The notes beneath the pieces are model-generated. The model had not been told where the DNA came from. It was given only the letters and a program-made list of their open reading frames with translations, and made no database searches. From Saccostrea cucullata (Eukaryota): a stretch of DNA of 64,000 bases. The stretch covers positions 1 through 64,000 of the forward strand of contig NW_026936797.1 in NCBI RefSeq assembly GCF_032062105.1, given 5' to 3'. Within the stretch, counting starts at the first letter, position 1. Each line of letters starts with the position of its first letter. The translations under genes were made by a program, and so were the position numbers. Below are positions 15,818 through 49,153 of this stretch, piece after piece.

Positions 15818-15828
15818 ACTTTCGTTTT
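15818..15828 (-). promoter_or_regulatory. ISRE/IRF-like motif AAAACGAAAGT upstream of HSPA12 copy E
   Basis: Plus strand actttcgtttt, 29 nt upstream of the ATG. Confidence 0.55.
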
Positions 15829-17379
15829 ATGTAAAGAAAACCCCGGGTTTGTGACATTATTATTTTATTGGTGGGATAATAAAATTTAAATTTGTCGCAC
15901 CTAGTTAAGTTTTAGTTTAATCTTGCTAAGATTACAGATAAAAAATAAATAAGAAGGAATGGATATTGTATTGTTTGAATTCTTTTTTACAAATTGTATG
16001 ATTAGACGATGTTAGGGCTGGTAAAATTTTTGGTGGGCAAATGTTTTTATTTCTTTTTATGAAAATATTTTCTTTTCACGATTCACGATATATAAATTTA
16101 ATAACTAATGTCAGTCGCATGATATAAAATTACTGTATCTCGTTCACATTTTATTTCTTCGCACCACATAAGATTTCTATTTTTACGTTTTACTTTGCAC
16201 CGACTAAATATTTCGCTGATTTTAAGTTGACATACATGCATATGTGTACAATTTGATGATGGAATAGTTAAAAATTCAATTTACATGCCTAAACAGCTTT
16301 AATTATTATTTCTTCGAAAAAGAAAATTTCAATTGCATTATAAAAAAATTAGATGCGTTCTTGTTGTCAAAGCAACAAGTGATCTTACGATCGATTTCTA
16401 TCTAGAACGATATCTTTATTCATCCTATCAAACAGGGTAAAGAAAGTAATTTTCTTATATTCACAGTCTCTAAATTTAAAAAATAGATTGTGGTTATTTT
16501 AAAAGTCTTCTACAGAATCTCTCATAAAAGCTTTTAGAGATCGGCAAAATCTTTAAACTTGGGAGAAAAGTCAATCATTCTGCAACTGGAAAAAGACAAA
16601 CAAAGAAAATGTTAACTGGTCGTAGTGGGATACACAAACCAACGGTGACAAAGTTTGGATCGGTCGTATATATCTTTGCAATAAATGCCCCTTTAAATAT
16701 TAAAAAATTTTAAATTCTTAGTAGACCCTTAATCAACCCTGTAAATCAGATCTTAAAAAAAATATATCATGTAAAAAAAAATGAAGGTAGTTGCCCACAT
16801 TTAAATTAAGGGGGTCGGCTTGGGTTTCCATTGCACAGTTCATTACGCATCATAGCAAAATGAAGTGTATTTACTGTTTTATTATTTTTTAATTTAATTC
16901 CTATTTTGTATTATTTATGGATTTTGATATTGAATCCTTTTTGTAATGTTCATATCCTCCTTTAAAAAATGAAAAGAATTAAAAATTACAATTGTAAAAC
17001 TTAATTACATATTGTATATAATCGATTTTTTAAAGCGATTTTTAACTAATATGTAGATTGACTTGAAAAAGGGGCTTTTTTTGATGTTATGATAAATAAA
17101 CTAGATTCCTTTACTGATTTTTCCCTATAAAAATTAAATAGTAAAATGTAATAATTCTCCTTGAAATCACTGTCAATGGACTAATCCCCGTGCTTTAGTC
17201 CAAAAATTTTAATCCCTACTTCGCAAGCTAATTCCCGGTTATGGGGAAATCGTCTAGTTTTTTACTTTTGTATTGGTCATGTTGGTATATAATGTTATTT
17301 GACTAATCCCCGTGCGCTAGACAAGTGAGCTAATCCAACTCCGAAAGCTTATTCCTCTATTTTTTATGCCCCCGTAATC

Positions 17380-17660
17380 GAAGATTCGGGGGTATATTTT
17401 TTTAGTTCTGTCTGTCCGTCATCCGTCGGTCTGTCTAGCTGTCCCGCTGTAAGCCCCCCCCCCCCCTGGTTTTCCGCATTTTTTCTAAACACTTGCAGAT
17501 ATTGAACTGATTTGTTGTAGGGGGGCTGTTCAATTTTAATGCCCTGAACTTCATGACATACAATACAGATATAATATGACATTAAGCTTGATTTTTTTCG
17601 CATTATTGAATCTTTAATGAATTTATAACAATTTATGTGACCACTTTTCATCAGATATTG
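17380..17660 (+). mobile_element. Helentron-associated non-autonomous element (HINE/DINE-like) 5' portion
   Basis: tttttatgcccccg..gaagattcggggg hairpin followed by a ctgtctgtccgtc microsatellite, the typical HINE head. Confidence 0.6.
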
Positions 17661-18216
17661 TCATAGTGAGAAGCTGGAAAACAAGGGCTATTCGAGACAC
17701 TGCATTAAAAGTGAATGGTAAAGAATCAGTAAACTAGATTGAAATTAAACACTTCATTCAAGCTGCTTTAAAATTCGATAAGAATTCCAAAGAAATATTC
17801 ACTGAAATATGTAACATTTAGGGAACCAAATTTCTGTTTTATAGACAAATGAGCAGGTAGATTTAAATGAAGTTTGATTGTTTTTTTAATATTTATACAA
17901 TTATTGCTGTTTTTGTGATCAATACAATGATTTAGCCATCTGAGGAGTACAATATTCACCGAGCCCGAAGGGCAATAATTGATTCATTATATGATTCATC
18001 GATAAAATGCTTGTTAATTTGCATTTAATTAAGTCCTAACCAAATACAAGCAAAAAACCAAATTTAAAAATTTTAAAAAACCCTTTCCCAGTCGTATCAC
18101 TTTGAAATTTTTTTTTTTAAATCAATTTTAGTTGCCATGAAAAAATAATTTAGAGTCAGTCTTTTTATAGGATAGATTTTGAAAGGAAGGAGTATTATTA
18201 GGGAGATCTGACTCCC

Positions 18217-18255
<39 letters not shown>

Positions 18256-19032
18256 ATGCTGTTCAGTAGAAGTGTTGGAGGGGCCCCTTTGCATCCCCTC
18301 TTACCACCCTACCCTAAAATATATATTTGCTTATGTTTTTTTCCATGAAAAAAAATCACAGTCGTTTAAATCCCTTTTCCCCAAAACAATTTGTATCAAT
18401 TTGGAATTTCCCAATCTATTTTTAGATCAATATAGAGGAAATAAATCCTTGTATTGACCTGGAACGTGCAGGTCAATACAACGTAGTATTTTTCTAACAT
18501 AGTTAGATCTCAACCAATCAGAGAGATGGAAATTATTCAATCATATAATAAAATCATTTATTTTGATCATGTAAAATAAGTTATTTTGACCAAAGTACCA
18601 TGCATGTATATAATGAATAGACGTTTCTCTTCGTAAGACAGATCGACTTATTAATTTCCAAGACATTTCATTAATAAACAAGCAATTACCGAAATGTTCA
18701 CTTTTTGTAGGCACTTTTTCATGAACAGGTTGTTATAAAATGACATCAAAAAAGAGAAAGGGAAAATCAGGTAGGGGACATCTATTGCCTATGCAATACT
18801 CTCAGAATGCTTGTTGGAATTGGCCCACAATAAAGGGGATAAAGGCCAAAAAACCCTATTTTTAAAAAAACAGGCATTCATAAAGAAGGTGTTTTATTTC
18901 TACTGTGAAAATTTTTGCAGCTATCTGCTACTCTTTTTGCATTGTCCATTTCATCTATTCATATTTTGTTGAGTCAATATTCAGAGTAATATAAAAAACT
19001 TTAGAATTTACAGGTACTTCCCCCAGTTGCTT

Positions 19033-22000
19033 TTATTGTTCGGGAAGTGCTATTTTTGGAGAGAGCAAATCGAAGGTAACTTTATACTCTTTCTTTGTGT
19101 GACAATTGCAAGCTGTAACCTGTAACTCTGTGTGGCCAAATATCAAAGACTCTTCTATTTCTAATTTTCTATCTCTAACACTTTGAAGCGGAACTTCCAG
19201 AATGCCCAGTTTCACACAACCCTTCTCGTCAACATTTTTAGGATCTTCCTCATTTGAAATGTACACGCCACATTCTAATGCTTTTTTTTCCCGGTTTTAG
19301 TGCATTGAATATGTAAGATTTCTTGTTCCAGGCTTTATCTTTTCTCCTTTCGCAACGAATCGGAAAAACACATCTCTCATTTTTTTTTCCTCCCCCATTT
19401 TAAAACAAGCTTTGATTTCATGTGAACTGTTTCATCAAATTTTGGCCGGTTTGAATTCCGTAAGTATATCTCGCCACTCTCTCCGAGATAAGATCTGGTT
19501 GATAAACCAAAATAAACAGCCCCTTTGAGTACAGCAAGGCCTGCTTGATTTGGTATAACTACTCTACAAATGTCTTCAAATTTCTCTTTCACAGCCTCGT
19601 GGACAATGTTACATTCTAAAAACCCCCCGACCATCAAAATTACTTTCAAATCCTTAATAGTTGGAATCAGATTTGATAGATGGTAAAAAGCCCAAGACAC
19701 AGTAGGATCAAACATTTTTTTTTGAAAAAGGAATGTTTCATGTGCAATTTGCCAAGTACACATTTTAAATCATTTTTGAATTGCGATTTTTCAATCAATC
19801 CCTGAAAAATTATATCTGATTTTATCTTCTTTGTATCTTGATTTGTTTTTTTCCCAATTATTTCTGCAAGTGCAACCGGAAGACGAATATGAAAAGTGGG
19901 TCTTTTTTGTATTTTTCTCATTTTCCTGTGGCTTCTTTTTTTTACTTCGAAAGTTCTTTTCTTAATTTCAAAACTTTGCCAAAAGTCAAAGTAGTCTTCA
20001 ACATACGGGGGTTTAAGTTTTGAAAGTCTCCAGAACATCTTCACCAAATAAATTTTTCAAAAATTTTTTAAATGCTTTGTCAATGCATGTTCCCCCAAAA
20101 ATTTCCACCCCCCTGCTGGCACCAACTCTGCCAAAGTTCCGTCTGGCTTCAGCTGATGAACTGTGATATCAGCAGTTCCCCTTTTTGTTAATAAATAGAA
20201 ATTTTATAAATACCAAAACCCTTTAATGTAGTTAGAATAGCTAAAAAAATTTAATTAAAGCTAAATACTGTTGCATTACAAAATTATAAATTTTTTTTCC
20301 CAGATATTTTTATAACAAATATCTCAATTTTAAAGAAATGTTTTAAGAAAATGTTTTCCAATTTCATAAAATGCCAAAAAAGATTGTAGACTGGGTTTAT
20401 ACAAAAGCATGTTATGTATTGAATTCTTAAACTATCTTGGTCTATTATAATGAAGTGATATCCTTTTAGTCTTGCTTGGTTTAAAGTTTTAATAAATTTG
20501 AGGTTTTTGAATCAGCTTCAAAATTTCCCAATACTATATTTTCTACTTAAAAAACTGAGTATAACTTATACAAGATTATACAATTTCTGATCGATTTGGT
20601 TATTTTTTTTTTAACAAACCACACAAACTTTTTTTGGTTTCAGAAATTCTAATAAAAGCACAACTTACCGCCAAGATCAAGGACCATATATTTAGCTTTA
20701 CTTTCCCTTTTCCAGCCAAAAAAAATCTGCTGTTTTCTGTCGATTCTAAATGCATCAGTTGACAGTAAATTGACGCTGCTTCAGGTTTCCAGGGCAAATC
20801 CAACTGGTCCCTTTTAATACCAGCCTAATTTAAAAAAAATTGTGAGAAAAATGAGGAAAAACACAAGCGTGACAGGAAACTCCATATTTGTTTTTAATAT
20901 TACTTAAAGGTTCTTTCTAAAATAAAAGATTTTACTAGGAATTTTTTAAAAAAAAAAAAAACAAATATTCGTCAATTTTGATATAGTTTTTTTCTTTAAA
21001 TGTATCGTGCATGTATAGCATTAAAGCTTTTGCCTCAATAAAAATTATGTCGTCTGTCTAGGTAATTCAATTATTTGTATATCTCTTGGAGAATAATCTA
21101 CTTAAAGATAGCAAAGATTCTCATCTACACATAAATTTTCAGCATGTTTTGTTAGTCATTAAGTTAACTATTTCAACATTATATTCATACAATTAATTTA
21201 TTATTACATTCTCTGCCGCTTCTCGCATGAACATTTTGGCAGTGTCGCCCCAGATGGCAGGTACTGTCAGAACAAAGTCTATGTCCTCCATGAAAATTTC
21301 TCCTGTGATTTTATCTTGTAGTGCTTTCAGTAGATGGTCTTTCATGTACTTGATGCAATTAGTGAAATTTTATAGCATCTACAGTTTTTACCATTCTCGG
21401 TACCCCATTTTTTTTCCTGTGAACTCTCTGAAATGTTAATAAATAAATACGACATATCTATCAGTTGAGTTTTCCCTTTTTTTTCCGAGTGAATTGTGCA
21501 ACAATTTATTCATTACAATGATTAGGGGTATTTATTAAAATTATTATTTACAATGAGTAAATACATGTAACCTGATTGTATATCATTTAATATTCTTGAA
21601 TCATGTGTATTTATACTATCAATTATTTGAATAGAGCCTTTTTTTGATTACCCATGGGTGATATATGTACCATTTTAATTTTCACAAAAGTAATATACGA
21701 ATTTAAGAATGTGTAATATTTTTGCTTATATATGTAAATATGCTACAGTTGTTAATAAAATCGGAAAATTATTTTTGTTTATTTGATAAGCCCTAACCAT
21801 GGTACCTGATTCCCCTTTTTTGGAAGTCTAATTTTGTTTATTAATATGGCGCTTATCAGATGCTAAATATATTTAAAGGGCTTGACACCTAACAATGGTG
21901 CAGAGGCCCTAATACTTGGAGCCGTTGCCCCAATAGGTGCCCTAATGATGGAGCCGATTGCCCTTTAAAAGGGTGCCCTAATGATGGAGCCTAACGCCCT

Positions 22001-25000
22001 AACAGGTCCCTAACAAAGGACCTAACGCCCTAACTTGGTCCCCAAATCACGTTAGGTGTCAGACAGGGTATATAAAGGAGAAGAGTTAGTGAGTTGATAT
22101 ACATAGCTTGGATTTGATTTGTAAAACTACTCTTGGGTATTGTTAATACACTCGTTGAAACGAACTTTGTCGTTGTTCTTATGTTAGATCTATAAAGATC
22201 TCGAGTTCCTGAATTTATACACGGGATCCACAATATTTTGTGACGCGGGTAAAAACAAACACCCCATAAAAAGAAAAAAACGTTACAATTGGTGGCAGCG
22301 GTGGGATCCAAAGAAGTTATTCTACGTGTAACACCGGAACGGGACAGCACTTAGTTTGAAATGGAGACACCCATCGTAAAAAGGAGGAATTCCCCCTAGA
22401 AAGGTAGAACGATTCGACAGTCCAGCTCCCTGAATGACTCTGGAATAGAGGTCCATGCGGGGTGAAGAACAAGTTTTCAGCCCACAAGTCGAGTAATACC
22501 AGACAATCCTAACTTTTAGGAGTTCGGGCAAAACTCGCAGGGTCTTTCCGTTCAAAACGGTCAAGCCAAGGCCAAGCTTAAAAGAATCCTATTTATTTGG
22601 GTACTCTTTGCTTTAAAAGGATGTTCTTTGTTGGTGATGTCCTGGACCTATTTTTCCCGAAAGCAAGATCGTACAGAAATCGCATGAAAATGCAGTTATT
22701 TCTCTGGTATCTGTAACAAGTATGGTATTGCTTGTTATGGTAATCGGCGTAGCATGGAAGTATGGGGGAACAGGTCTGACAAATTTCCAGTAAGAAAACG
22801 GAAATTTCTTTGACACCTACTGATACACCCTATACTGGTGGTAGTGCGCCTAACGCCCCTACAGGTACCTATCAGGAACCTAAAATGTTTGGGCAATCTG
22901 GACGCACTACTCCTCATTTGGGTAATTTTCCTCGGGACTTGGGGACAATTTTGAATTTCCTATGGCTGGCGGGACATCTACAAACAGTCCTATGACACCA
23001 AATGCTGGTCAACGAACCAACGAATATCCAGTAAGGGGGGATTTTTTCGGGGCCAATGATAAAGTTGGGGTGGTTTCTACAATATTTCGAAAACATTTAG
23101 AATTAAACTCATTGGGGGCCCAAAAAATTTTTCCAAGTCTTACTTAACACCTTGCGAGGACAGGCCCAAAGCTATGCCTATGGAATGCCCCTTACTGTAC
23201 AGAATCACTATGAGGAACTAAAAAAGAAAATGGAAACCCAAAATTCGGACATTCTGCGATGAAAGAAAAAAAATATTGCAGATGTCAAAATTTGGGGAAG
23301 ACAACCTGGTAGTCCTTGCGAGATTTAGGACAGGTCATCGAAGATCTGTACCGAAGGGCCTATCCAGGAAATCCAGATTTAGTTGAAGAAAACACTATAC
23401 AGTCCTTCTTAAAAAAAGTGTGGACAATCTGAAGATTTTTTGACTTGCAGTGAAACCAACCCAAACCCCGGAAATTCAAGAAGCAGTTATTAATGCAATG
23501 CAAGAAGAGTGCTTGCGGATTGGGGAAAAAGAACTGCCAAAGGAGACAAAACCAGGCTATAAGCCTGTGTATGAGATTGAAGATGGGGAATTGAATGATG
23601 AAATAGCAGCTGCGGATACTGCCAAACCTCCAAGCGCGGGTGACGGGGTTTAACAGTATCTTTTAAAAACATGAGAACCCCAAGTACATGTACCAGTACA
23701 GGACCAGGGAGGAGGGGACCCCTTACAACCCGTGGAACCCGAAAAAAGGAGGAAAACTTCGGGCAAATTAAGATTTTGCCATAGTTGTGTTGAAAAGATT
23801 TTGTAAGGAATTATATTAACTAAGATGACTGATGCCGCAGGTCAGGTGTCAGTCAACTTTATACGGCCCAAAACCTAGGGAAGAAAAGCCTATATCAGAA
23901 AAAAAAAGGGGAAAAGGAAAATGTTGAAGAAAAAAAAAAAGGCCAGGGAAATCCAAATGTGAAGCTACCAGTGTGATGAACTTTTGATTTAATCTAGTGA
24001 CATTTTCATTTAATATAATTTTGTTGTTTTACCTTTTATCTTTTTGATTGTTTGGCTTTTGTGTATTGAGCATTTTTATTTGCGTAATGTGATTTTACGT
24101 ATAATTCATGTTCATGTTTTAAATACCCTGATATTAATGACAATGGAAGTCATGTTTCAAAAGGAGGGACCAATGTAATATTTTTGTTTTATTGTAAATA
24201 TGCTACAGTTGTTAATAAAAAAGGAAATTTTTTTTGTTTATTTGATAAGCCCTAACCATGGTACCTAAATTTCCCCCCCTTATCTTGGAAGTCTAATTAG
24301 TGTTAATTAATATGGCCCTTTTCAGATGCTAAATGTATCATGTGTCTTGACACCTAACAATGGTGCAGAGGCCCTAATACTTGGAGCCGATTGCCCTAAT
24401 AAATGCCCTAATGATATGGAGCCGATTGCCCTAACAGGGTGCCCTAATGATGGAGCCTAACGCCCTAACAGGTGCCCTAACGATGGAGTCTAACGCCCTA
24501 ACTAGGTGCCCTAAATCACGTTAGGTGTCAGACAGGGTTTTATAAAGGGGAGAGAGTTAGTGAGTTGATATACATAGCTTGGATTTGATTTGTAAAACTA
24601 CTTTGGAATTTTTAATACACTCGTTGAAACGAACTTTGTCGTTGTTCTTATGTTGATCTTTTAAAGATCTCAAGTTCCTGAATTTATACACGGGATCCAC
24701 AATATTTTGTGACGCGGGTAAAAACAAACACCCCATAGAGAGAAAAAAACGTTACAAATGCATTTACTAGACTTTTATGATAAAAGAGGTAACTTTAAAT
24801 TTTCGTATATACGAGAGAGTATGATTAAGGCTAAATATGTGTTTATTAAAAATTTGAAATTTTATAAAACCCGTGTATTTTTTATTTTAAATATATATGC
24901 TATTAAGCAAATTTTACCTTCTGTAAGGTGGTCTTTAATATCATCTTAAATCGCTGAAAAAAGAAATATTCTTGACATTCCTCATCTTCTACCGAGGTTA

Positions 25001-25260
25001 AAGAGGCTAATTTCCCCAGCTTTTTAAATCCAAATGAATTAAATGATTCGTCCGGGTTAAGTAGTAGTGCACTGGGGGGGCCCTTTTCAAAATCTGTTCC
25101 CCACCTGGCCATTTATTCGTAATAACCCTGAGGCCATTTCTGTTGAAAAAAGTAGGCATATCCAGAATAGGCTGTTCCAAAGTCTATCGCCGCCACAAAA
25201 ATTTAAGGATTTCGAAGGTTTATTTCTGACTGAAGCCTGAAGGGCAGACTTATCAGCCAT
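19033..25260 (-). CDS. HSPA12: HSPA12 copy D; exons 25260-24918, 21427-21208, 20824-20669, ~20180-19033; many indels (pseudogene or consensus errors)
   Basis: Motifs ALLLNPDESFNSFG, LTVPAIWGDTAKMFMREAA, PEAASIYCQ, GTADITVHQ, LMVGGFLEC, AGLAVLKGAVYFG and EESLIFGHTE, with GT-AG boundaries matching the other copies. The exon 4 acceptor is garbled. Confidence 0.85.
21905..22053 (+). repeat. ~32-bp tandem repeat inside the LTR (second array at ~24370-24515)
   Basis: Unit approximately gccctaatgatggagcc(g/t)a(tt/ac)gccctaacagggt, about 4-5 copies per LTR. Confidence 0.8.
22800..23790 (+). pseudogene. gag: Gypsy-type gag (capsid) remnant, frameshifted
   Basis: Fragments read HLxGQA.SYAYGMPLTVQNHYEELKKKME, LRDLGQVIEDLYRRAYPGNPDLVEENTIQSFL and QEAVINAMQEECLR, which resemble the retrotransposon gag capsid. 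Boundaries are approximate. Confidence 0.75.
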
Positions 25261-25291
25261 TATTTCATGTCCTATATCATTATTTACATGC

Positions 25292-25302
25292 ACTTTCGGT
25301 TT
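25292..25302 (-). promoter_or_regulatory. ISRE/IRF-like motif AAACCGAAAGT upstream of HSPA12 copy D
   Basis: Plus strand actttcggttt, 32 nt upstream of the ATG at 25260. Confidence 0.55.
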
Positions 25303-26302: not shown

Positions 26303-28027
26303 TTAATTTTTGGCGGGATATTTGATTTTCTCTGACAGCAAATCAAAAGTGACGCTGTATTTTTTTTCTTCCCGTTACAGGCCTTTGCATGTAGCTCTGT
26401 ATGTCCAAAAATCGGCTCCCCCGACTTTCCGTCCCTCTTTCAACGTCAATTTTCGGAACTTTCCCAAATTTCTCACAACCATCTTCGTCAACATATTTAG
26501 GATTTTCTTTGTTTGAGATGAAAATGCCACTTCAAGGTCACCATCGGCTGATTTCAATGCCCTGAAAATGTGACTTTTTTAAAGAACCCTGCTTTTAATC
26601 GGTCTCCCTTGGTAACGAACTTAAAGAATAATTTTTACACCGGGTTTTGGGAAAATTGGGGCATCCCGCTTTGCCTCTTTATGTTCCCCTTTTGGGTAAA
26701 TTTTGGCCTTTGAATTCCGTAGGTGTTTTGCTACACGTTAGGGTTTATCCGGGTGATGTCCCAAAAAAAACAGCGCCTTTAAAAATAAAAGGGGGGCCCC
26801 GGTTTAAAATAAATCGACATTGACCTTTGATTTCAAACGTTTCACGAACTTGATTTTGAATAAGTGAACATTCCGAAAATCCACCTACTAACAAAATAAT
26901 TTTCAAACCTTTGCCAACTCCTTTCACAAGCACCTTAAGTGATTGACAATTTCGTCTGTAGTTGCCTGAAAAATACTTTTCATAATTGTTGTAGGTATAT
27001 GCAATTTCTTCTGCGCAAATTTGATTCCTTTTCCTTTCCATTTTGATTTTTCTATAATTTTATTTATATCTTTCTCTTTATTAATGTTTGGATTGTTAAA
27101 AACCCAAAAATTCCAATGGAACTTGTAAATGGATATTTTCTGTTCCTTTTTTAAAGTCAAATGATCTTTTCTTTAACCCCAAACCGTTCCAAAATCAAAA
27201 AAGTCTTTTGGCACTGTCTTTTTGAAATTTTGTCATTGCCTGTTTGCCAAATAAATCGTTAGAAAGGCCCAAAAACCTCATCAATGCGTGTTCCCCCCCA
27301 GAGTCCTCCGGAAGCAGGAGTTAGTTCTATTTTGTTCTAGTCTCCTGCATTTGGTGTATAGTTATATCTGCCGTGCCACCTGAAAATAAAACTATATATT
27401 ACTGAAAAAATGGAAAATTTCAAAATGAAGGCTAAACCCAGTTTTTAACATTTTTTTAACTACTACATGTAGATGTAAAAGTGGAATATTCTAGTAAATA
27501 AGGACACCGAGTATACTTTTCCTGAGATGTGTATACATTAGAAAAATACAAAAAAGGATAAATAGACATCTTTTTTCCAGGGGTTGGGAAAACTTTTAAA
27601 TTTTTTTTGGCAACCCCAAAATTTTTTTTTTTAAATTCTGGTGTATCTCACTCATGATTGATTCAAACGTGTACTACAGGTATATTTATTCAGTATACAT
27701 GAACATGAATTTAGTAACATGCATAGCCTTTGAATTCCTGCTCTACACTAAAGGTACAATATTGATATTATCAAAATGTATAAAAATATTTGAAATGGAT
27801 TGAAGATTTCAAAAGTAACACACTCATTCTTACAAATGTAAATAGAGAGAGATATATATTTATTTAGTAATTTACCTCCAAGATCAACAACCATATATTT
27901 TCCCTAGGGGTTTTTCAGTTACACGAAAGCTGGAATCGTTCTGAGGCTCCAGATCATCAGCTGGCAGTAGATAGAAGCGGCCTCAGGTTCCAAAGCAAAA
28001 CTAATTTTTTTTTTACTTTGTTGCCAC
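26303..28027 (-). pseudogene. HSPA12: HSPA12 copy C, exons 3 (~28027-27876) and 4 (27379-~26303) only
   Basis: ALEPEAASIYCQL, YMVVDLG|GTADITIHQ, LLVGGFSECSL, KGAVFFG and VTFDLLSEKI. Exons 1-2 were not found between 28030 and 36356. Confidence 0.82.
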
Positions 28028-28926
28028 CTGGCGCGTAGTGTTTCACAAACACATCTTGTTTAATCATAGAACTTGCAAAATGATGATTTCAAACGAAACT
28101 ATTAATATTCTTTTTTTTTTTCTTCAACTTGCTGGGCAAAAATTTGCAGTGTTTTCAAAATTGATTGTACGCAGAACAGGTTTTTATGGAATGAACTTGG
28201 AGATATCAACCCCATATGCAGTTTATATGGGTATGCTGTATAAATATGGGAAGAAGACAATTGAAAAGTATAAGCCATCGTATTTACCAAAACGTTTTGT
28301 GGTTAGAATATCAAATTATCAATGTCCTTTTTTCGTAAAATAACCAAAAATTAAACAAATTAATTGTGTAAGGATCTGTGATATCTTTCTTTTCAAGTTC
28401 ACAGGGATATATCGAGTTATATAAATTGAAGTTTCTTTTGTAACTGTAAAGGAAGCGCTAAACACCAACAAAAAATGCTTTTTGGACTTGGAGAAAAATA
28501 TAAAAGACTGCTTATTGAGGATATTTGATTCATTTTCAACTTAGGATACCTGCCTAAAGTCTGCAAGAAAAATGATCGAAGGCAATGGACTATGCATGGA
28601 CAGAAACATTATTTACTTAAATCAGGAAAATCGGTGGAAATAAAGAATTCACTTACTTATTCGTGGTCTGTTTAATGACAATATTATTTGTAAAATGAAT
28701 TTTGAACAAGGTTGTTTATATCCGTGTTAAAACAGCTTATTTCTCTGTAGCTTGCCCAAATTGAAATATTAATCGTATTCAGAGCATATTCTTGCTTATA
28801 AAATCAACTTTAAAACAAAACACAAACCATGTGCAAGTGGGTGGTAATACTTCTTGCAAGGGTATTGGACAAGCATGGTCATGCTTTTCTTCTTGGTTTT
28901 CTATTTAAAAGATTCTTCAGACTTAC

Positions 28927-31038
28927 GTGGGACAATCGCCTATGGGAAGAAGCAGGGTTAAACAAACATAGGCTGCTAGGATACCAAGAGACAGAAACCA
29001 CTGTGGGAGGAACAGTAGAATGTCTCTAAAAGGGGACCAACATCTGTCCTGTAACAATTAAAGAAGAATAATTAATTAGTATAACTGTCCTGTAACAATT
29101 AAAAAATAATTTTAAAATTAGTAGTACATGTAAGTCAGGTATAATCATAATGATGTTTCAATATGAAATGTAAGAACAACGCAATATGTAACAAACTGGT
29201 ATCTTTACATTTTGTATTACAATTTGCGTTGAGACCAATATAGAAATTAGTAAAGCAAAAATGTAAAACGATCTCTTAGGTGTTTTTTCCCCATTTTGCG
29301 GAATTACGTGTCAAGGTTGGTGCAAAATGTAGAAATCTGAGCTTAGTACATTTTGCGTTGTTATAACATTTCAAGTTGTTATTGCATTTCGCATTGAAAG
29401 ATAGTATATCATCTTTCATAAAGGAATATTACTCGAACATACCAAATTACAAGAAAATAAGGAAATCAATTAACAAATGTCGGATGTTGTGTAAGCCAAC
29501 TGTTCTTCTGACGACTAATATATATTTCAGATTAAAAACTTCAACTACGTCAATCATAAATGAAATGAAATAAGGAAAAAAATATGCAGGAAATTTGGGG
29601 AAAAAAATATATTTCAGTTTTTTTTTTTTAATTGACTTTCATGTCCTTATTTTAATTTAAAATTTCGGAGAATTTTTTTTTATCAGAAAATTATTCACAT
29701 TTGATACTCTTAGCGGAAATCTCATTTAAAAACGTGTTTTTGCACGTCAAACAAGCGCGTGAATCGGATCCGTTTGTTTTTATAGAGTAATATGGAGTAA
29801 GCGTAGCATGGGTTTAAAATGCACTTCTTGTCCTTAAGCTTGCAATTGGTTACTTTACTTCTTCAAAATGAAGAAGGGGGCTAAAAAGGGGGAAAATATT
29901 ATAGTTGGTCTCATCTTTTGGTGCTGTGTGTCTTTTGGTTTACAAAATATTTAACCTTGCCCATAATTTTTTGAGCGCAAAACACTTTCACTTAAAAATG
30001 CCTTGAGCGTTTGACGAAGGAACAATTTAATTGTTATCTTATATATACCTTTAGAACCAGTCACGGTAGCCTAGTGGTAGGGCGTTTGCTTCGTGATCGG
30101 GAGGCCAGGGTTCAATTCTGGTTCGCCCCCCCCCCCCTCTTACGAGTCATTAAAACACGGTCGTCAACATTCATTATTATACATGTACTAGATATTCAGC
30201 TTTGGAAGAAAATTTTTGGTACTGGAGTTCGAACCTAGCCCCCCACCCCCCCCCCCCCACCCCCCACGAAATAGGATTTTCGTGTTTGGACAGTGGAATT
30301 TTTTTTGCTTTAAATTTACAATTTTTTTGTTGGTCTAGCCCCCCCCCCCCCCCCCCCACTTTCAATTTGCTTCCGACGCCAATGCTCACTGCTCAATTCC
30401 TCTGAGTGCCGAGTATAGGACTAAATTTGAAGGCCTTCACGAACCGTATATAATTGTTAAGTTTTAATTGAAATCATTATGCTTTGTAGATAAGAATGGT
30501 TTCAAAAATCATTTTTTTTTAAATTATTATGGTAATTTTGTACGTGACGTAAGTATTCCCATTTGATCAGAATAACTTGTAATCTGATCAATTTTGGATT
30601 TTTTTAGGGAGTGGTACTGATAGATCTTATCAGCCCCAGGAAAAAGAATGGGAACTTGTTTTCTAAATCATATCTGGTACTTATACATGTTTAGTATTTA
30701 TTCGGAATAGCGTTTACCTACAGAAGCAAATCTAAATCAATCAGCAACAGAACAAGAAAGATAACTGGCGATGTTATCATACCTTGTACATGTATTTATC
30801 TATCATTTACCCACAGAAGCAAGTCTAAATCAACAAGATAACTTGTGATGTGATCACACCAGATATTTATACCGAATTCAGCAACAGAACAAGAAAGATA
30901 ACTCGAGATGTGATCATACCTGGTATTTATCTGGTGTATCGTACCGACAGAAGCAGATCTCAATGAGCCCCAGAACAAGGTACGTGAGACTAAACCTCTG
31001 TAGTACACCGGGAATACGTATATTCTTCAAGTCCACGG
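28927..31038 (-). pseudogene. HGSNAT: Two consecutive internal exons of heparan-alpha-glucosaminide N-acetyltransferase (31038-30920, 29048-28927)
   Basis: AVDLKNIRIPGVLQRFSLTYLVLGLIE...DKYQ spliced in phase 0 to DRCWSPFRDILLFLPQWFLSLGILAAYVCLTLLLPIGDCPT, with canonical AG/GT sites. RIPGVLQR and LxxLLPxxxCPT are HGSNAT signatures. No flanking exons were found. Confidence 0.85.
30056..30442 (+). mobile_element. tRNA-derived SINE interrupted by a MITE fragment (30126-30384)
   Basis: A-box-like ggtagcctagtggtag and B-box-like ggttcaattc head. After the insert, the body ctgagtgccgagtataggactaaatttgaa resembles 53766-53800. Confidence 0.6.
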
Positions 31039-31236
31039 CTGAAATAAAAACAGCATACCAGGGTAAAATGAAGGGAAACTTACACATTTTGTTATATGTG
31101 TATATGCAAAGTTGACATTCCTGCGTAAACAGTATATTTGCAAATTCAGTCTCGCCCCAAAAAAGCAGACAAAAGCAAAAATCAGACCATTCCTTATTTG
31201 GATTATAACCACACAAGGCTGAATAAAAACGGAACT

Positions 31237-36355: not shown

Positions 36356-39300
36356 TTACCTTTTACTGCTTGGGATTTTAATTTTTGGTGAGAGAAGATC
36401 AAAAACGATTTCGTGTTCTTTGCCTGTAGCAAAGTTGCAAGCTGTGACTCTTATTTCTGTCTCCCCAAAAATGATGGATTCCTCAATCTCCATATTAGTC
36501 CTAAGTTCTGAATTCGTCAATGGAACTTCAAGAGTCCCTAGCCTATAACAGTCTTCCTCGTCAACGTACTCTGGATTCTTTTTGTTGGAAATGAAGACCC
36601 CACACTCGAGTATTTTTTCGCCTTGTTTGAGAGTTTTGAAAATGTAAGATTTCTTCAGACCAGGCTCTATGGGATCACCCTTGGTAATGAATTTCAAAAA
36701 TACATCTCGACATCTGTCTTCGCCATTTATCTTATGCTTTTTATGTAGAGAATGTCTTGTTTTGTCAAATTTTGGCCACGTTTGAATTCCATACGTATAT
36801 CTCGCTACTCGACGTGAAATCAAATCTTTGTGGTGACCGAAAAAGACTGCCCCCTTCAAAACAGCGAGACCTGCTTGATAGGGGATCACCAAACGCTTAT
36901 TTCCAAAATGTTTTGCTAGTTTTTCTTGAACCAGCTCGCACTCAGAAAATCCACCAACCATTAAAATGACATCTACACCCGGACCCACTTCCTCTCTGAA
37001 CATTTTAGACAAATGATCAACGAGTTTCTCGATCGTTGGTGTAAAAAATTTCTGGTAACTCTCAATCGGCAACTCGAGTTTTCCCTGCAAACTTGTAATG
37101 TCTTCATTTTTATGTGTTGATTCCTTTATAAGCGCTTTCATTATTGCATCATGCATTCCTTTCTTGTTTGTTTGCTCTTTAAATATTTCAGTCAAAGCTA
37201 TAGGTATTAAAAGATGTACCAAATGTGAAATCTTTGAAATAACTTGTTCTCTCTTTTTGATTTCAAAATTTTGCCAAAATTCTATATAGTCTAAGACATA
37301 CTCCAAATCGTATTTAAAGGTCTTCATAACAGTTTTTCCAAAAATGTCCTCAAGAAAGTTTTTGTAGGCCTCATCAACACAAGTTCCGCCCCAGTCTCCA
37401 CCACTTGCCGGTACCACCTCTGCCAGAGTTCCGTTTTCTTGAAGCTGATGTACAGTTATGTCAGCGGTGCCACCTAAATTTTAAAGCATTTTTATTATGA
37501 CAAAACCATTACATACAGGTAATATTTGGAAAGGTACGTAAGTTGGATATTCAAGATAAAGTGGTTAAAAAATGATATTTCGGTAAACTTTAAATAAAAA
37601 ATACCACAGAATAGGAAAAGAAGTAAATGGTTACGTGACAACAAATTGTTATGATAAACGTAATGACTACAACTTAATTTTCAATCGACAATTTTATATC
37701 TATATAGCATATACTATTATCACTTGCATATCAGGGATGATATCTCTCTCAATTTATTCAATACGGAAGAATATGCTCGATGTACAAATGATTTCTAAAA
37801 TGAAGTAGGTTATTGACAAAAAGTTGATGAAACAAGAATCTCAAAAGCCTCGTTTAAAGTCATTTTTTCGTAAACATTGAAGATTTTTCATACTAATTGA
37901 TGGGTAATTATCAGGCACGTAGCATACCCCTCATGTTTAAGGTTAATGCAGCAAAATTGGTACTGAAAGAGGTAAGAACCTAACAGCCCTCATCCCCATC
38001 CCCACCCCCCGAAATAGGATTTTCGAGTTTGGGGAAACTTTCCCTTTTTCTGTTATACTGATTATTTACACACTGAATTGTCGACGAGTTTTTTTTCCCT
38101 TACTCCGTATTTCCATACATATCATAAGGATCCAACACGACAGGTGTGACCGTCGACAAAGGCTTACTCCTCCATTTCGTCTTATCCCATTTCTGATGTT
38201 TAAGAGTCCGCTTGCTTTGCTCCTGATTTGTATTTTTGCTGGGATTTTTAAGCTTAAATACTGTACATTATCTCAATACGCAGTATTTCTTTCAGGGAAT
38301 TCAAAAAAAGTAATGACAGAAGCCTGACTGACCAGTTCTTGATTAAAGCTGAGAGTATCATGCTATTTTTGGAGGAAGATGTTGTAAAACCTTAAGGTTA
38401 AAAATTCACGTTATGTGATTTATTGTAAATCGCAAAAATAAAAAAGTATTTAATGGTTGTATAAGGGCCAATCGGTTAGCTACCTTATCGGGCGACAAGC
38501 TCCTTGCTTAACTTTATCATTACTTTACAGTTTTTTAGTATCTATACTATAATAAAATCAGATACAACAAAGAAGTGGATAATTTACAGAAGAACAACGA
38601 ATTATTATGTACATAAAAATTTATGAAATAAAAGATAAAAATAACAATATTCTAGATTACAAGATCACTTTTTCGCCTCATACTACATATTACCAGGTAT
38701 ATTACATATAATAAATATCTTTGCCGAGGGAAAACTTATTCTTTACTTCTTAATATCGAACAGCTGTAGTATTTTATACATGGATGGATTAAAAAAAACA
38801 ATTTCTTAATTTGTAAAAACAATCTTCATATAGAGGATATACTAATAACAAATAGTATTCATCCTCAACACATACGTACAACCATGAAAAACATTTAATG
38901 TACGCTATGATTGTCCTATTATATCCCCGTTTTTTTTTTTAATAATAAAGTTGTAAGGATAATTTTAATCTGCATATACATTAATTTTTGAAACAATGGA
39001 ATTTTTTTTTCTTAAATGATTCTTTTATTACCTCCAAGATCCACAACCATGTATTTTAAGCCCATCTCCGTGTCCAGTTGCCTTTTCCCTTTTGCTTCTC
39101 AACAGCGTCAAAATGCATGAGGTGACAATAAATAGATGCTGCCTCTGGTTCTAATGCAATCTGCAATTGTTTGTCTGGTAATCCAGCCTGCAAACCATTG
39201 AAAAGCATTCATTATTTGTATTCTATTCATTTTTATGAAAGAAATGTACATGTCTCGAATGTGTCCATTTAAGGAAAACAATACTGCATGCAATGTAGCC

Positions 39301-41165
39301 TAACAGGGAATAAACAGACTTACTTTTACAGCCGCCTCTCTCATGAACATTTTTGCTGAGTCGTCCCATATTGCTGGCACGGTGAGTATAAAGTTAATGT
39401 CATCCAAAGTTATCTCCTCGACAAGGAATCTTTTTTCTATTTCTTTCATGAGATGGTCTTTCAGATATTTGATGGAAAGGGTGAATATTGGCATAGCTTC
39501 CATTTCCCGATCGTTCTCGTCCTTACACATTGTTTCTCGATGAACTCTCTAGTCAATGAAATTGCAATTATTAGTCTGATCTAGAATGTAAAGAGTGTAT
39601 AAGAAATACAAACTTTAAAAAAAATTGTAGAGTATTCCCTCAAAATTAAAAAAAAAAATATCAAGCTGTGCATTAAGCAGATAAATATTGTTACAGTCCT
39701 TGAAAATTGTGGGAAATAAAGTTATCAGTTTAGGCGTACATGTATGTACATGTATTTCGACAGTGCATCAGTTTTCCTACATCTACACATCTCTCTCTTT
39801 CTCTCGATCTATCTCTCTGAGGTTTTAATTGTCCTGGAGGATACTTTGGACCACAACAGGAGGTAAAGCTATGTTGAGAAAAAATTATTTCCTCGAGACC
39901 AGAAAAAATCGAAACTTTGTTAAATACTTCCTGACATACATGCAGTATAGGGTGAAGTTTATTCAAATCATGTCGTCTGGGGATAAAATGAGGCAAGCAC
40001 AATAGGTTATGAAAGATTTATACTGGAATATTTATTTAGGAATATATACAAATCAATCTTCAAAAACATCTTATGGTCATTTTGCCAGACAGGATAATAA
40101 ATAAATAAGATTAATTTTTAGGACTACAATTTATATTCTCACTGACCATCGATTCATAAGCATGATTTGGGTTAAGGCTAGTCCACAAAAAGAGATCAAA
40201 ACACACTTAAATATTTGTACAGGGAAATTTTAGTTTAGTACAGATTTGATTTCAATTTAAGGCTATCGTGGTCAGAAAAGGGGTGAAAATTTTCATCTAA
40301 ATATGTAGAATTTTTTTTAGTTCGAGAGTAGCAGTCTTTTGATATTGAACAATAGAGTTCAAATCACTGAGCTCAAACCCATTTTTAACTAATAGAAAAA
40401 TTATAAACTGGGACATTAAAAAAATCGATCCTTTTTAGTTTTACAAAGAGTGTGTGATTTTTTTTTATTGAAATTTATTAAGAGGTTTTGCATATCGTTT
40501 TTGTCAGCTTTTAGATTGAGTACTCCCTCCAAGAACACCCCCTCCTCCAGAGATCTTACATCGGAAAAAATGACTCTTGGGAACTGTTACACAGAATAGA
40601 ATCCCCCGGAAATTTGACACTTATGTCGATTTTTTTGGGGAAAATCCTACATTATACTCTAAGAGCCAATTTAATTTTCCGATTGCAAATCCTGCTATAG
40701 AGTTAGTTTTCGGGGGGGGGGGGTGTCTAAAATACTTGAACCACACATATTTCTATCTGTTCGTATTACTTAGTTTTAGACCATGAGCCCCATCCTGGTT
40801 CCTGTGTACACAATCATTTGTAAGCAAGATACCTACAAACCTGGGTGAGAGTTGTTTTCAACATCATCTTGAATCGATGAAAAAAATAATACTCCTTGCA
40901 AGTGCGACCTTCTTCGTCACCATCTGTTGCAATTTCAGAATAAGTTTTCTCCGCTTCAAAACCAAAGGAATTAAAAGACTTGTCTGGATTCAATAGAGAG
41001 AGCAGTTGGTGCTTTAAAGGACGATAACTGGCCACCTTCCCATTTATTCATATGCACTTTCGCCCAGTCCGATTTGAATGAATAAGCATAACCCGAATAC
41101 GTTGTCCCAAAGTCAAATGCAGCCACTAAAGTTCGGGACGATGATGATTTTCTTTCCTGTGCCAT
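36356..41165 (-). CDS. HSPA12: HSPA12 copy B, the most intact; exons 41165-40841, 39548-39324, 39187-39032, 37473-36356
   Basis: VAAFDFGTTYSGYAYS, LTVPAIWDDSAKMFMREAA, IALEPEAASIYC, DLG|GTADITVHQ, GGDWGGTCVD, VGGFSEC and AVLKGAV; all introns GT-AG; exon 4 fully open. Two single-base indels (~41000 in a ctctct run, ~39085 in an A/G run). Confidence 0.93.
38130..38275 (+). repeat. Dispersed repeat remnant in intron 3 (related copy at 45465-45605)
   Basis: cacg(a/g)c(a/g)ggtgtga.cgt.cga...gct(t/c)actcctccat...tgatc/tatccc...gatgtt at both positions. Confidence 0.65.
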
Positions 41166-41187
41166 TTTTATGACTTTACACTTTGTT

Positions 41188-41499: not shown

Positions 41500-41983
41500 T
41501 AAGTACAAATTAATGGTAGTGAGAACCAGACTGGACAACCCGTTACCTAACGGGAGTTTTAAAACTTGCTCTGACAGAAGATGTCTTCTTTGTAAGCACA
41601 GCACTGACACAGACAGTTTTCTGTTACAAGCCACAGCTACAAAATACTAGGGAATTTGTCCTGTCATACTGACAACTGCATTTATCTCATCAGCTGCAAA
41701 GTTTGCTCCAAACAGTATATTGGTGAAACAGGAGATCTCCGCATGAGAGTCAATAACCACCGTTCGACCATTAGGACCAAAATACTAATGTGTGTTTGGG
41801 AAACATTTCAACCTTGAGGGTCACAAATGGGAGGACATGACAGCAGTGGTGATTGACCATAACCCAAGATGGACAGACACTCAGAGAAAAAGCAAAGAAA
41901 AGTTCTGGATGCACAGATTGAAGTCATTCCGCCCTAATGGTATTAACAAACTGAATGACTTCACCAGAATGAACGTAAACTAG
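41500..41983 (+). mobile_element. Penelope-like retroelement 3' fragment (GIY-YIG endonuclease), frameshifted
   Basis: FKTCSDRRCLLCKH zinc linker, NCIYLISCKVCSKQYIGETG, RVNNHRSTIR, GKHFNLEGH and EKFWMHRLKSFRPNGIN. Confidence 0.88.
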
Positions 41984-43419: not shown

Positions 43420-46016
43420 TCAGTGCACACTCCAAGTCCTGCTATCGGGCATATCAATATCCTCAGCCAGCAAATCAAATTTCACCTCGTATCGCTCTCC
43501 AGTAGTAAAGTTACAGGCTTTCACTCGAATTTCCGTTTCTCCAAAAATAATAGATTCTTCAATTTCAGTTGTTTCACTTCGATCGCCCATTGGAATTTCT
43601 AATGTTCCTAATTTGCAGCATCCTTTTTCATCAATATATGTAGGGTCTTCGGAATTCGATATAAATACCCCACACTCTAATTTCCTCTTTTCATTTTGCA
43701 GCGATTTAAAAATGTATGACTTCCTCATTCCAGGTTCAATATGATCTCCTTTGGAAATAAATTTTAAAAAGACATCTCTACACCTTTCTTCTCCGGAAAC
43801 CATCTCTTTTTTCTTTAAATCGTGTTTGGATTGGTCGAATTTCGGCCAAGTTTGAATGCCATAGGTATACCTAGCAACCCGTTTAGAAATAGCGTCTGGA
43901 ATATGACCAAAATATACCGCTCCCTTCAGAACAGCCAAATCTGCTTGCTCGGGTATGACCAAACGCTTTCCCCGAAACTTTTCTTTCATTTCAGATGCAG
44001 TAACTCATTATCAGCAAATCCACCAACCATCAGTAATATGTTAACATTTTTGCCACTTTCTTTTTTGAAAAGACCTTCCAGATGAGTATGTGATGTTTCT
44101 AATTGTTGGATAAAACATTTCTTTGAAAATTGCAGATGGCATCCATATGACTCAATCTTTGTATTCTATCTTGCCATTGTAAATAGACTTTTCAATACAT
44201 CGTTTTATTGGTTCGCCCCTTTTCATGTGTTTATAGTTAAAAACTTCTTTAACAATATCCTCTAATCCCAATGGAAGCCTTATATGAACATTGTCACTAA
44301 CAGCTGTTCCTATTTTGTTACTTTTCTTGGTCTCAAAACCTTGCCAGAATGTGAAATAGTCATCTTTGTAATCTATATCCGACGAAAACTTCTCCATGAC
44401 CTCATCACCCAAAATGTTCTCCAGAAATTTGTGGAACGCTTTATCTACACATGTGCCTCCCCATGCCCCGCCGGTTGCCGGAATTAGTCCAATTTTTACC
44501 AATTTTTGAATTATTTTCTAAAAATTCTGGTGTATATGAAGTTCATATTATTTATATCTAATGCTAATTGCTTTCTACTAATGATACATATCCTTGTAAA
44601 AGCAAGAAAAAAATACTTGTACATCATAGTGTACATTTAATGCTATGGGGCGATGACTCTAACTTTTGGAAAATACTAAAAACTTTCTTAAATTTTTGTC
44701 GTTTTTCAAAATAATACTTTTTTAAATTCAAATTATATTTGTATATTTAAAGAATTTATTCCTTTCTATTGCTAAAAAACAATGTATATTACATATGTAT
44801 GTATGTGTTTTATTTTGGCAATTTCACAAAAAACCTGAAGTTTCTTAAATTGTCTATGATCCTTTTGACTTTGTCAATAAAATATGTACACAATTCAATT
44901 CATATTAGAAAGATGCTTGAGTTTCTGATTGACCATATCTAGAATTTTGTGTTTTGGAGACAATATGTTTGAATTCCCATGTGTACCTATTTCACCCCGC
45001 CATTAGCAGACCAAATAAATTTTGTATACATATGAAGCAGTATTTATTCAAAAACTTGTACATTGAATTATGTTCCAAATTGTATAAAGTAACAAAGCTT
45101 TAAATTTATGATAAACGCAATGACTTTAACTTTTCAATCTTTAACACCTCTTATTGAAGAAGCAATTTATACCGGTACCTTTATCACCTACATAACTACG
45201 TATACGGGCTTATGTCTCTCAGTTGATTTCATACACAAGAGTATGCTATATACGTACGAACAATTTCTAAAACAAACCAAGCATTTAACAAACAAGTTGA
45301 TGAAACAAGAATATCAACTTACAGTATCTGAATTTATCATTTTACAAGTGTTATGATCTATAGAATGATATTGTCAGCAAATACAACCCTATTGTTAGGT
45401 CATAATTTTCACACTGAATTGCCAACGGATTTTTCAATTTTTTTCCAACACGACAAGCAGCACACGGCGGGTGTGAGCGTTCGAAATGTGATGCTCACTC
45501 CTCCATGGCACATGATCTGACTTCCGATGTTCATAGAGGTTCATGTATACTCTGCTGCTGATTCTTGAATTTTAAATGGTCTTTGAGCTTGAATACCATT
45601 CGTTATCTACGTAGTCTATTAAAGAATTGCATTTGTTTATCATTATTCCAAAAGACAGTAAAAAAATTGTTTTGCCTCTACCTGGTATATGTTACTTGCA
45701 TTAAGAGATACATATTTGTCCTAAATTTCGAAATTTTTTGTATTGATCGTACAGCACTGTATTCTTTTTTAACTTTAACTAAAATCATGTATGTGTAAAG
45801 TACCTCCAATATCAAGAACCATGTACTTAGAGTTGATACTTTCTTTTTTCTTCGTATTGTCCGGATTTTCCAAGTGCATATATTGGCAATAAATAGATGC
45901 AGCCTCTGGTTCCAGTGCTAGAAGCAACTGATCACTCGGAATTTCAGCCTAAAAATTGTTTAAAAGTTACAACAAAAATTTTCAACGAGAACCAAGTATG
46001 CAACATCAGTGGAATG

Positions 46017-46085
<69 letters not shown>

Positions 46086-46868
46086 GTACCGCTTCTGCAG
46101 CTTTTCTCATGAACATTTTTGCTGTATCATCCCAAATTGCTGGCACAGTGATGACAAAAGTGATGTCTTTTACTTCAATTTTTGTTTCCGATTTCGTTAC
46201 AAGGGTTTTATTTATTTCTTCAAGAAGATGATCTTTCAAATATCGTATGCAGTGGGTAAAGACCACAATAGCATCCAGCTCCTTTTTGTTTTCCTCCATA
46301 CATTTGGTTTTTCTATTGACTCTCTGCATATAAAAAGTATTTTTAGTGAAAGTAATAATATTATTAAATCAGAAATAAAATTCAACACTCCATCTTTATC
46401 AGTTTATATGGCCATAATTTCATCGTATCACTCTATAGATTTTCATCATATTTTCAGCTAGAGTTGTTATGTTTGTACACATGTTCATAAACAAAAAGAA
46501 AATATACTAGTTTATCAAATTATAGGATGCATTCAAATGATAACATATTCTACCTTCTCTAATTCTGTTTTCAAAATCATCTTAAATCTGTGGAAAAAGT
46601 AATAGTCCTCGCATTTTCCCCCATATTCATCAAGTTCAGAATAATTTTTCTCTGCTTCATATCCAAATGAATTAAACGATTGGTCTGGATTTAAGAGGAG
46701 AGCTGTCGGTGCTTTGTGAGACATTAGGTTCCCACTTGCCCACTTATTTGCCACAACTTTTGCCCAGTTGTCCTTGAAAGAATAGGCATATCCAGAATAA
46801 GTTGTGCCAAAGTCAATAGCAGCCACCAAGAGTTTATAGGAACTTTTTTGTTTTATTTCCTCCGACAT
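43420..46868 (-). pseudogene. HSPA12: HSPA12 copy A; exons 46868-46554, 46323-46090, 45948-45804 intact, exon 4 (~44488-43420) damaged
   Basis: VAAIDFGTTYSGYAYS, VITVPAIWDDTAK and LALEPEAASIYC. Exon 4 lacks its acceptor and the GTADITVH motif, has an in-frame TGA at 44152-44154 and indels near 44090 and 43993. Confidence 0.85.
46021..46084. repeat. (GA)32 microsatellite in intron 2 of HSPA12 copy A
   Basis: Perfect dinucleotide run starting 5 nt into the intron. Confidence 0.98.
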
Positions 46869-46899
46869 TTCGACACATCCTAAAGAAATATTTATAGCT

Positions 46900-46910
46900 A
46901 CTTTCGTTTT
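46900..46910 (-). promoter_or_regulatory. ISRE/IRF-like motif AAAACGAAAGT upstream of HSPA12 copy A
   Basis: Plus strand actttcgtttt, 32 nt upstream of the ATG. Further motifs gaaagtgaaa (~47270) and actttcgttttc (47862-47873). Confidence 0.55.
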
Positions 46911-49153
46911 ACAAGATTATGAAAAGTAGACTAAGTATGTTAAGGTTTCGTCAAATGTCAACATGTCCAAAAATTTATTTTTACAATAATTCCAGAACTT
47001 TAACAGTTTATAAATTTTTCATTGATTAACAGATAGAAAGTATCAAACTTGATATAAAAAATACTTGGAAAAAATTTAATGATCAGCAATTAAAAATTCT
47101 TCTTAAAAATGCATATATTTTCAAAAATCACCTAATTAATTCCGTGCAATTTAATGGAACCATGCATTGCAGAAACACAATATGTTTATCAATGAAAATA
47201 AACCTTTCAGTTGAAATATATCTATGAAAGTTAATTTTCCCTGTTGAAAATTGTTGAAATGTTAAACTTGAAAGTGAAAAATTATTTTTAAAGGGCATGA
47301 ACATTACACAGATTTAAGTTAAAATATACCTGTTTAAATCTTATATATTTTCATAGCATTTCACACAAAACTTACCCTTCAAAAAAAAATTATTTCATCA
47401 AGTTATGGTTTTCAAAATTTTGGACAGGGTTTGATTGTCAGGTGCACTTTTCAAATTTTCACATTTTCTGATGCAATTTTTCACAAAAAAAGTCATTTTA
47501 TTAAAATTTTTGTAATCAAAATACTTTAAAACTTTAATCCAGAAAAATAATATATTTATAAACTGTAAACGTTTTGACGAAACACCACACACAGTTTTCA
47601 TCCGATTGTAAAAATAACTTTTTAGCAAATTGATCACACCCGTGAAACCTTACAATTTAAACAGGGCACGGACAAACTGTTATCATGTTTAATTCATCCG
47701 GCGCGTGATACATCAAATTGTTAAAGTTAGACCTATTTTTTCGAAAAATAAAGTGAATTGCTTTCAATGTTAAAATTTCATAAGTATCTATACCCTGATG
47801 AATTAAAATTTACATGATCTGCAATGATTATAAAAAAACAAAATTAATTAATTAAAATTCTACTTTCGTTTTCGATGATCCACGGCAAATTAAAAAAAAT
47901 GAAAGTAAAGCGATGTGCATACCAAAACCTTTAAATATTTTAAGTTTTTGTCACTAAGAGAAAAAATTCTTTAAATTTATTTTTGTGAATATTTCTATTC
48001 GATATATGGTTTGTTCCTTGATTGAATTTTTTAAATTTTATCTCTTTTTTAAACATTTTAACCTATAAAAGAGAAAAATAAATTATTTTTTTTAAAGATG
48101 CAATTAAAATTTTTTCTTTGGTATTAAACCTTGAAAAAAAATGAAACCCTAATTTTTTTTTTGAAAAGTTGGATGATCCGATGCATTTGATATTTGTTTA
48201 AATTAGTAAAGTGATTTATCATTATTATTTTGAAGAAGTTCAATTTATTAAGGTTCCTCAAAAATATATATTAATTTTTACAGTGACTTTATTGAAATGC
48301 TATTTTGCAGTTTAAACAAGTTTCTGCCAATAAATTACTTGTCTAGCATTTGTTTTTCAATGATGCAATTGAAATTTAACTAACCCATATGGGTAATCAT
48401 CTGAATGTCTTTTATCACAATTTGAAATGTACTTATATCTAAAACATATTGAAAACAATGTAGAAATTACAAGAGAATGACAAATATGCATAATTTTTAT
48501 ATAATGCCAAGAGATACAAAAGATATATTTGAGGAACTTGTCTGACCTTACAACAACAACAACGAAGACGACAGAAAAAAGAAGATAGTCTGATATTGAT
48601 GTTTATTATTTCGAAATATTTAAATTAAACAAGACAGAACAAGATTAATGAAACTTTATTAAATGGATATAGATATTATAGTATGATAAATTTTTAATAG
48701 GGTATTAATCCATTCCTTCTGTTTACATAATAGACTGATATTCCTGGCAAGCCAAAAGTTCTGAAAGTTGAGAAGTCATTTTAATCTGGCAATTCGTCAA
48801 AGTGATCTTCCTCGCTTGTTTTACCAGAAAAGGAAACCCAAAAATAATTTTGAAAAGGTTAATTTGGTCAGAAAATGAGCCTCTGTTTTGTCGGAGAGGT
48901 CCATAACCTGGGAAGTTCCAATGCAAGTCAAGCATATGGTCAAAGGAGAAAAAATAATTCAATAGTATAATAAGGCAAACTATGGTACTCCCTTCTATTC
49001 ACAGATAAAAAATGAAGAAATGAATTCATGAAAAATCAGTTAGAGATAAAGGCACGCGGATAAATAAATAGTAAGTCATTGTCATTTTTAAAGACGGCTT
49101 CTGTACATTGTTCACTACCATGCTGCTCAGTGCATTGTGTATCTGTCTCTGTT

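Follow-up and report, generated by a model that had tools for sequence, protein, structure and literature searches.

The DNA analysed here, called the window, is a 64,000-nt stretch of the oyster Saccostrea cucullata (contig NW_026936797.1, positions 1 to 64,000) that contains five copies (A–E) of HSPA12, an atypical HSP70 gene, arranged in tandem on the minus strand. Just before the copies that have exon 1 stands a short word, AAA[A/C]CGAAAGT (the strict motif), which we read as a putative site for interferon regulatory factors (IRFs). Gene copies and motif sites are located as follows.

43420..46868, minus strand: copy A, HSPA12, four coding exons, ATG at 46868
36356..41165, minus strand: copy B, HSPA12, ATG at 41165
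26306..28014, minus strand: copy C, HSPA12 remnant, exons 3–4 with many frameshifts, exon 1 missing in the window
19033..25260, minus strand: copy D, HSPA12, ATG at 25260, frameshifted on the window contig
15460..15789, minus strand: copy E, orphan HSPA12 exon 1, ATG at 15789, related to copy B
46900..46910, minus strand: IRF-type site of copy A, 31 nt before the ATG, with an acceptor-like AG between site and ATG
47862..47872, minus strand: second site, identical to the copy A site and ~960 nt further upstream, kept on allelic contig C18014
41188..41198, minus strand: IRF-type site of copy B, 22 nt before the ATG
25292..25302, minus strand: IRF-type site of copy D, AAACCGAAAGT, 31 nt before the ATG
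15818..15828, minus strand: IRF-type site of orphan copy E, 28 nt before the ATG
39907..39916, plus strand: looser site AATCGAAACT in intron 1 of copy B, in the opposite orientation, also on contig C18069
47270..47279, plus strand: GAAAGTGAAA, named as a motif in an earlier note on this DNA, within chance

Membership in the HSPA12 subfamily is indicated by best matches named HSP70-12A/12B and by the actin-fold motifs DFGTT, DLGGGT and VGGFSE; proteins identical to the window copies bear the database label Saccostrea cucullata HSP70-12A-like. The cluster encodes HSPA12-like ATPases of 595–619 aa, with ATP-binding motifs intact in the allelic proteins. RNA reads reveal that copies A and B are transcribed and spliced (in copy A, the intron 46323/46554) and differ from the window by one-base indels, among them those in the last exon of copy A. 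The last exon of copy B is 100% identical to protein P0001 (607 aa), while its exon-1 frameshift does not occur on contig C18069 and corresponds to one gap in an RNA contig. That same contig carries an intact allele of copy D (P0026) and an allele of copy C with exon 1 plus motif (L013). Copy E has NFG in place of DFG and no further exons within the window. Contigs C18069 and C18014 seem to be alternative haplotypes of this cluster whose paralog content differs in part. Since many frameshifts are absent from the allelic contigs and the RNA differs at indels, those in the window are probably mostly assembly errors. Around window positions 28000–32200 the three contigs differ in paralog content, exons 1–2 of copy C being replaced in the window; such differences suggest presence/absence variation between haplotypes.

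The strict motif has exactly five matches in the window, all of them on the minus (gene) strand, the plus strand reading ACTTTCG[T/G]TTT. The genome-wide rate (7358 matches in 1.17 Gb) predicts 0.40 matches (Poisson P=6e-5), and an order-3 Markov model 0.05. The earlier note had placed the motif just upstream of the ATG in every HSPA12 copy that has exon 1. For the window this is exact (4/4 copies, 22–31 nt, gene strand), and on allelic contigs C18069 and C18014 the motif precedes 5/5 and 4/4 exon-1-bearing copies, once as AATCGAAAGT; for the family it does not hold, a sense motif being ATG-proximal at 17 of 85 loci. The flanks of the window sites align at the noise level of AT-rich DNA except that copies B and E, the pair also excepted in the note, share ~15 nt upstream of the motif. 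Across the 17 proximal sites, ungapped flanks are on average 0.28 identical on the upstream side and 0.34 on the downstream side. Two additional motifs had been proposed: the one at 47862 is a strict match, and the one at 47270 is ordinary, reading GAAAGTGAAAA on the plus strand, with GAAANNGAAA found 14 times in the window.

We then considered the whole family. An exon-1 search of the genome gave 150 matches among 248 candidates, from which 110 loci were taken in descending score, several evident duplicates being skipped; with three window copies these make 113 loci, collapsed at 88% identity into 85 non-redundant groups. Upstream regions of 1.5 kb were counted from the DFG codon. Comparison with background showed enrichment: the strict motif was present at 31/85 loci (34 sites; 0.79 sites expected), as against 2/85 for the reversed control, and within 200 bp at 15/85 loci (0.11 expected). 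A loose version was found at 42/85 loci, compared with 10 for the reversed control and 6.2 ± 2.5 in resampled sequence. De novo counting of 8-mers in these regions ranked this motif first, second and third. Beyond the 17 loci with an ATG-proximal sense site (the sites having been chosen for that orientation), 25 further loci have sites elsewhere within 1.5 kb in either orientation.

No strict match was seen upstream of Ras (0/14), canonical HSP70 (0/9), HSP20 (0/15, with 1.0–1.45 kb examined) or proteasome/LSM genes (0/17); HSPA12 differs from Ras, canonical HSP70 and HSP20 combined with Fisher P = 2e-6. Another carrier is the Ro60-like (TROVE) family, where the motif is found within 1.5 kb of 6/16 genes and further up in several more, and lies 15–31 nt before the likely ATG at five loci, in either orientation. 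This family (L272-L278, L339, L349) is itself expanded and has long single exons. TLDc/IFI44-like genes have the loose motif in 6/22 cases and the strict one in 1/22.

Single-base variants of the word, with all other positions held fixed, were used to determine the kind of site. AAA and GAAA hardly vary, the fourth base is preferably A, then C, then T, and C is tolerated for G after GAAA (5 vs 0.0 in background). The GAAA variant occurs 38 times in HSPA12 upstream regions against 1.3 expected, and GGAA once against 0.6, on which ground an ETS site was rejected. A two-site interferon-stimulated response element (ISRE) was likewise rejected: a pair of GAAA units spaced by 2 nt is absent, and AAA is preceded mostly by T or C. 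What the substitutions do fit is a single IRF half-site, AANNGAAA plus S-T, and the sites have the AANNGAAA core followed by S-Y. Thus the 'ISRE-like' label of the earlier note did not survive, lacking its second GAAA unit, while the proposed IRF-type specificity did, the base preferences matching the IRF consensus.

Published sites give the same impression. The portions of PMC5861432 and PMC2638798 used here describe the IRF core AANNGAAA, the IRF element (IRF-E) and the IRF6 site AACCGAAAC[C/T]; the oyster motif is one or two bases off the selected IRF6 site. With the IRF-E or IRF half-site as given there it shares the AA-N-C-GAAA-S-T core, tolerance of G or C after GAAA and occurrence in either orientation, but consists of one half-site only, with a strong preference for AAA[A/C]CGAAAGTAG; IRF binding is predicted. 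The ISRE (A/GNNGAAANNGAAA, a dimer site) contains the 3′ half-site of the oyster element, whereas the cluster sites have no 5′ GAAA. True tandem ISRE forms were seen at other loci, namely one IFI27-like gene and some TLDc genes; in the former (L404) the classic tandem element (CTACTTTCACTTTCACTT) lies ~1.2 kb upstream of the domain. As the earlier note had assumed, the oyster has IRFs: the genome contains three IRF genes in which the conserved recognition helix (WKANFRCALNS) is intact. Mollusc IRFs (CgIRF1, CgIRF8) are reported as ISRE binders responding to immune challenge in the sections of PMC13524488 drawn on here, which give no native consensus site or HSPA12 target; those of PMC9437489 and PMC8218723 give no native IRF site either.

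A heat-shock element was rejected as well, there being no perfect three-unit array of alternating nGAAn in the window. The earlier statement that no such array adjoins the ATGs stands for perfect arrays; within 600 bp of copy A there are two matches with one mismatch each. Among the 113 HSPA12 loci, one has a perfect element and 15 have one-mismatch matches, compared with at least one match at 7/8 loci of intronless HSP70, usually several.

From its retention while flanks diverge and its recurrence across the family, we conclude that AAANCGAAAST(AG) is, judged by sequence, a selected and conserved IRF-type element in a new target family. We lean towards the reading that the word before HSPA12 genes acts as a single oyster IRF site, giving basal expression and a modest rise under double-stranded RNA (dsRNA) or virus. 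By analogy with established IRF biology, the IRF DNA-binding domain would read AANNGAAA close to where transcription begins or within intron 1, and the bound IRF would recruit activators; activation of the pathway by dsRNA or virus would then raise transcription modestly, independently of heat-shock factor, with an output that may be ~1.3- to 4-fold if another oyster species is a guide. It is likely that HSPA12 genes are switched on partly by immune signalling and not by heat-shock factor, because an IRF-type word stands before all cluster copies with exon 1 and near at least a third of the family.

Expression data exist for the Pacific oyster (M. gigas), in which 89 of 113 HSP70 genes are HSPA12 (PMC11268181, in the part consulted). 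Table S5A of PMC7064767 has 57 rows named HSP70-12A/12B among 1,587 selected genes. By our count, 47 of these rows are up on day 1 after poly(I:C), by log2 0.3–2.1, compared with 6 after seawater; at one time point or another 51 rise, and 40 are up after ostreid herpesvirus 1 (OsHV-1) in unprimed oysters. The passages of that paper used here do not mention heat-shock genes. As to the suggested comparison of dsRNA or virus with heat, the rise after poly(I:C) and OsHV-1 is there in published data, and heat also moves the HSP70 family. The proposal of an IRF-inducible immune array 'rather than' a heat-shock locus is partly supported, by the IRF-type site, its enrichment, its absence from canonical HSP70 and HSP20 upstream regions, the presence of IRF genes and the family-level rise after poly(I:C) and OsHV-1 in the Pacific oyster, and is too sharp in its exclusion of heat; that the genes form an 'antiviral effector array' goes further and is plausible but unproven.

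Several observations weigh against an immune reading of the site. In the same table, 23 of the 57 rows are also up by day 10 with seawater alone, and the induction is small beside viperin (log2 3.4) and IRF (4.8). The table is a preselected list of differentially expressed genes named by best BLAST matches, and its CGI ids could not be matched to M. gigas proteins of this clade. In the heat data of PMC11268181, as far as covered here, 31–47 of 113 HSP70-family genes go up and 29–45 down. In S. cucullata, viperin has no motif in ~10 kb, only the T-type AAACTGAAACT; two adjacent IRF genes on contig C12779 are without a strict site; IFI27-like genes score 0/12; and the motif is scarce at CARD (2/16) and Mab-21 (2/27) genes. 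Most oyster antiviral families examined therefore lack the word nearby, although these negatives are weak because transcription starts were not located. Nor is the word immune-specific: two repeat families account for 18 of 30 extended matches sampled genome-wide, 67 of the 100 listed motif-plus-ATG matches fall by eye into five repeat families, and a METTL14-like gene (L355:301-340, with an MT-A70 exon downstream) has a site 25 nt before its ATG.

These last points bear on the main alternative, in which an IRF or a factor of similar specificity binds constitutively and sets general or tissue expression (gill, palp) that has no particular connection with virus, transposons using the site likewise. 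Such use is favoured by the occurrence of the word in several repeat families and ahead of a PIF1 helicase reading frame and of METTL14, by its scarcity near classic antiviral genes and by HSP70-family expression, highest in palp and gill in the portion of PMC11268181 seen. Against it stand the zero strict matches in 55 housekeeping or heat-shock control regions and the rise of the family as a whole after poly(I:C) in the Pacific oyster table, and we regard it as doubtful, though not to be taken lightly.

The word could instead act in RNA, as a 5′ untranslated region element or an intron-end splicing signal. All 17 ATG-proximal sites are sense (they were selected so), several have an acceptor-like AG 16–26 nt behind, and the single RNA contig that crosses the copy A site (46780–46924) reads through it unspliced; two sets of raw reads at low depth gave no transcription start for the copies. 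However, the word, being purine-rich, resembles neither a branch point nor a pyrimidine tract, in copies B and E no acceptor separates the motif from the ATG, and distal HSPA12 sites, like those of Ro60-like genes, are found in either orientation with unchanged flank preference. Distal HSPA12 sites keep the trailing TA(G) even when reversed, which argues against a splice acceptor, and on this test the splice-signal reading was rejected. A function at the RNA level is very unlikely.

Neutral inheritance through recent duplication, or from a word-carrying repeat, is less credible still: in a quick, poorly resolved tree of 103 columns, 13 of the 17 proximal sites come from a single supported clade of 24, the word persists in orphan copy E and repeats carry it, but the 11-mer is intact amid flanks at random identity, the paralogs are just ~48–57% identical in protein, and sites recur across the tree at differing positions. 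ATG-proximal sense placement is nevertheless mostly an inherited feature of one subclade; inheritance accounts for site position in the cluster, not for exact retention amid randomised flanks nor for recurrence across the family.

A broader version of the preferred IRF reading is put forward tentatively, as something possible that we would not expect on present evidence. The bivalve HSPA12 expansion would be largely an IRF-wired innate immune family of Hsp70-fold ATPases driven directly by a monomer-type IRF site; in an animal that lacks true interferon, that site would define a direct IRF regulon (HSPA12, Ro60-like and some IFI44-like genes), and the several oyster transposon families that carry it may spread it.

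Searches of the open literature, subscription papers not being covered, showed no paper that links bivalve HSPA12 genes to an IRF element; the kind of element is known and the target family is new. Bivalves keep ~60–100 HSPA12 genes, an expansion usually read as heat and intertidal adaptation. The sections of PMC11268181 drawn on describe the same tandem clustering of HSPA12-like ATPases but, in contrast to our account, explain it by environmental stress and leave promoters unmentioned. Direct IRF targets in molluscs are barely known, and a native site of 11–13 bases, present in some paralogs and not in others, lets the idea be tested within the family on RNA-seq already available for poly(I:C), OsHV-1 and heat. 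If the IRF reading is right, 'HSP70-12' signals of oyster stress studies would have to be reread as immune tone, and the site would help to map both the IRF regulon of invertebrates and variants for herpesvirus resistance.

The AAAMCGAAAGTAG word is also found in at least five unrelated families of interspersed repeats (L117, L124, L129, L132-L134, L137-L140, L143-L146; L120, L125, L126, L128; L149-L154, and others). One of them is laid out in promoter order (CCAAT, ETS-like site, TATA-like stretch, word, ATG), one differs from an abundant ETS-like repeat by a point mutation, and a repeat with AAACCGGAAGT followed by AAAATGG has ~1,500 genome copies (control 10). Two genome-wide figures were dropped as consisting mostly of repeats: the motif-then-ATG excess as proof of directionality (164 vs 25 in the control; antisense 48 vs 31) and the extended-word excess (910 vs 82). 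The PIF1 helicase frame (L362:4967-7546) is an uninterrupted open reading frame of 860 codons with a site ~10 nt before the ATG, and probably belongs to a mobile element. Pfam naming behind 40 sampled sites, with 108 of 189 candidate reading frames scanned, identified few: METTL14, the PIF1 frame, transposon domains and some probably intronic chance matches.

A metagenome scan for cross-species DNA found no relative. Elsewhere in the window, a decayed Gypsy-like retrotransposon lies downstream of orphan copy E (8700–13400; integrase zinc-binding domain at 8749–9216). A near-identical pair of minus-strand reading frames (49216–49746 and 51452–51949; MGLFHSCMR...), a tandem duplicate of an unknown gene without Pfam match, is followed by an Arfaptin gene on the minus strand at 56600–58900.

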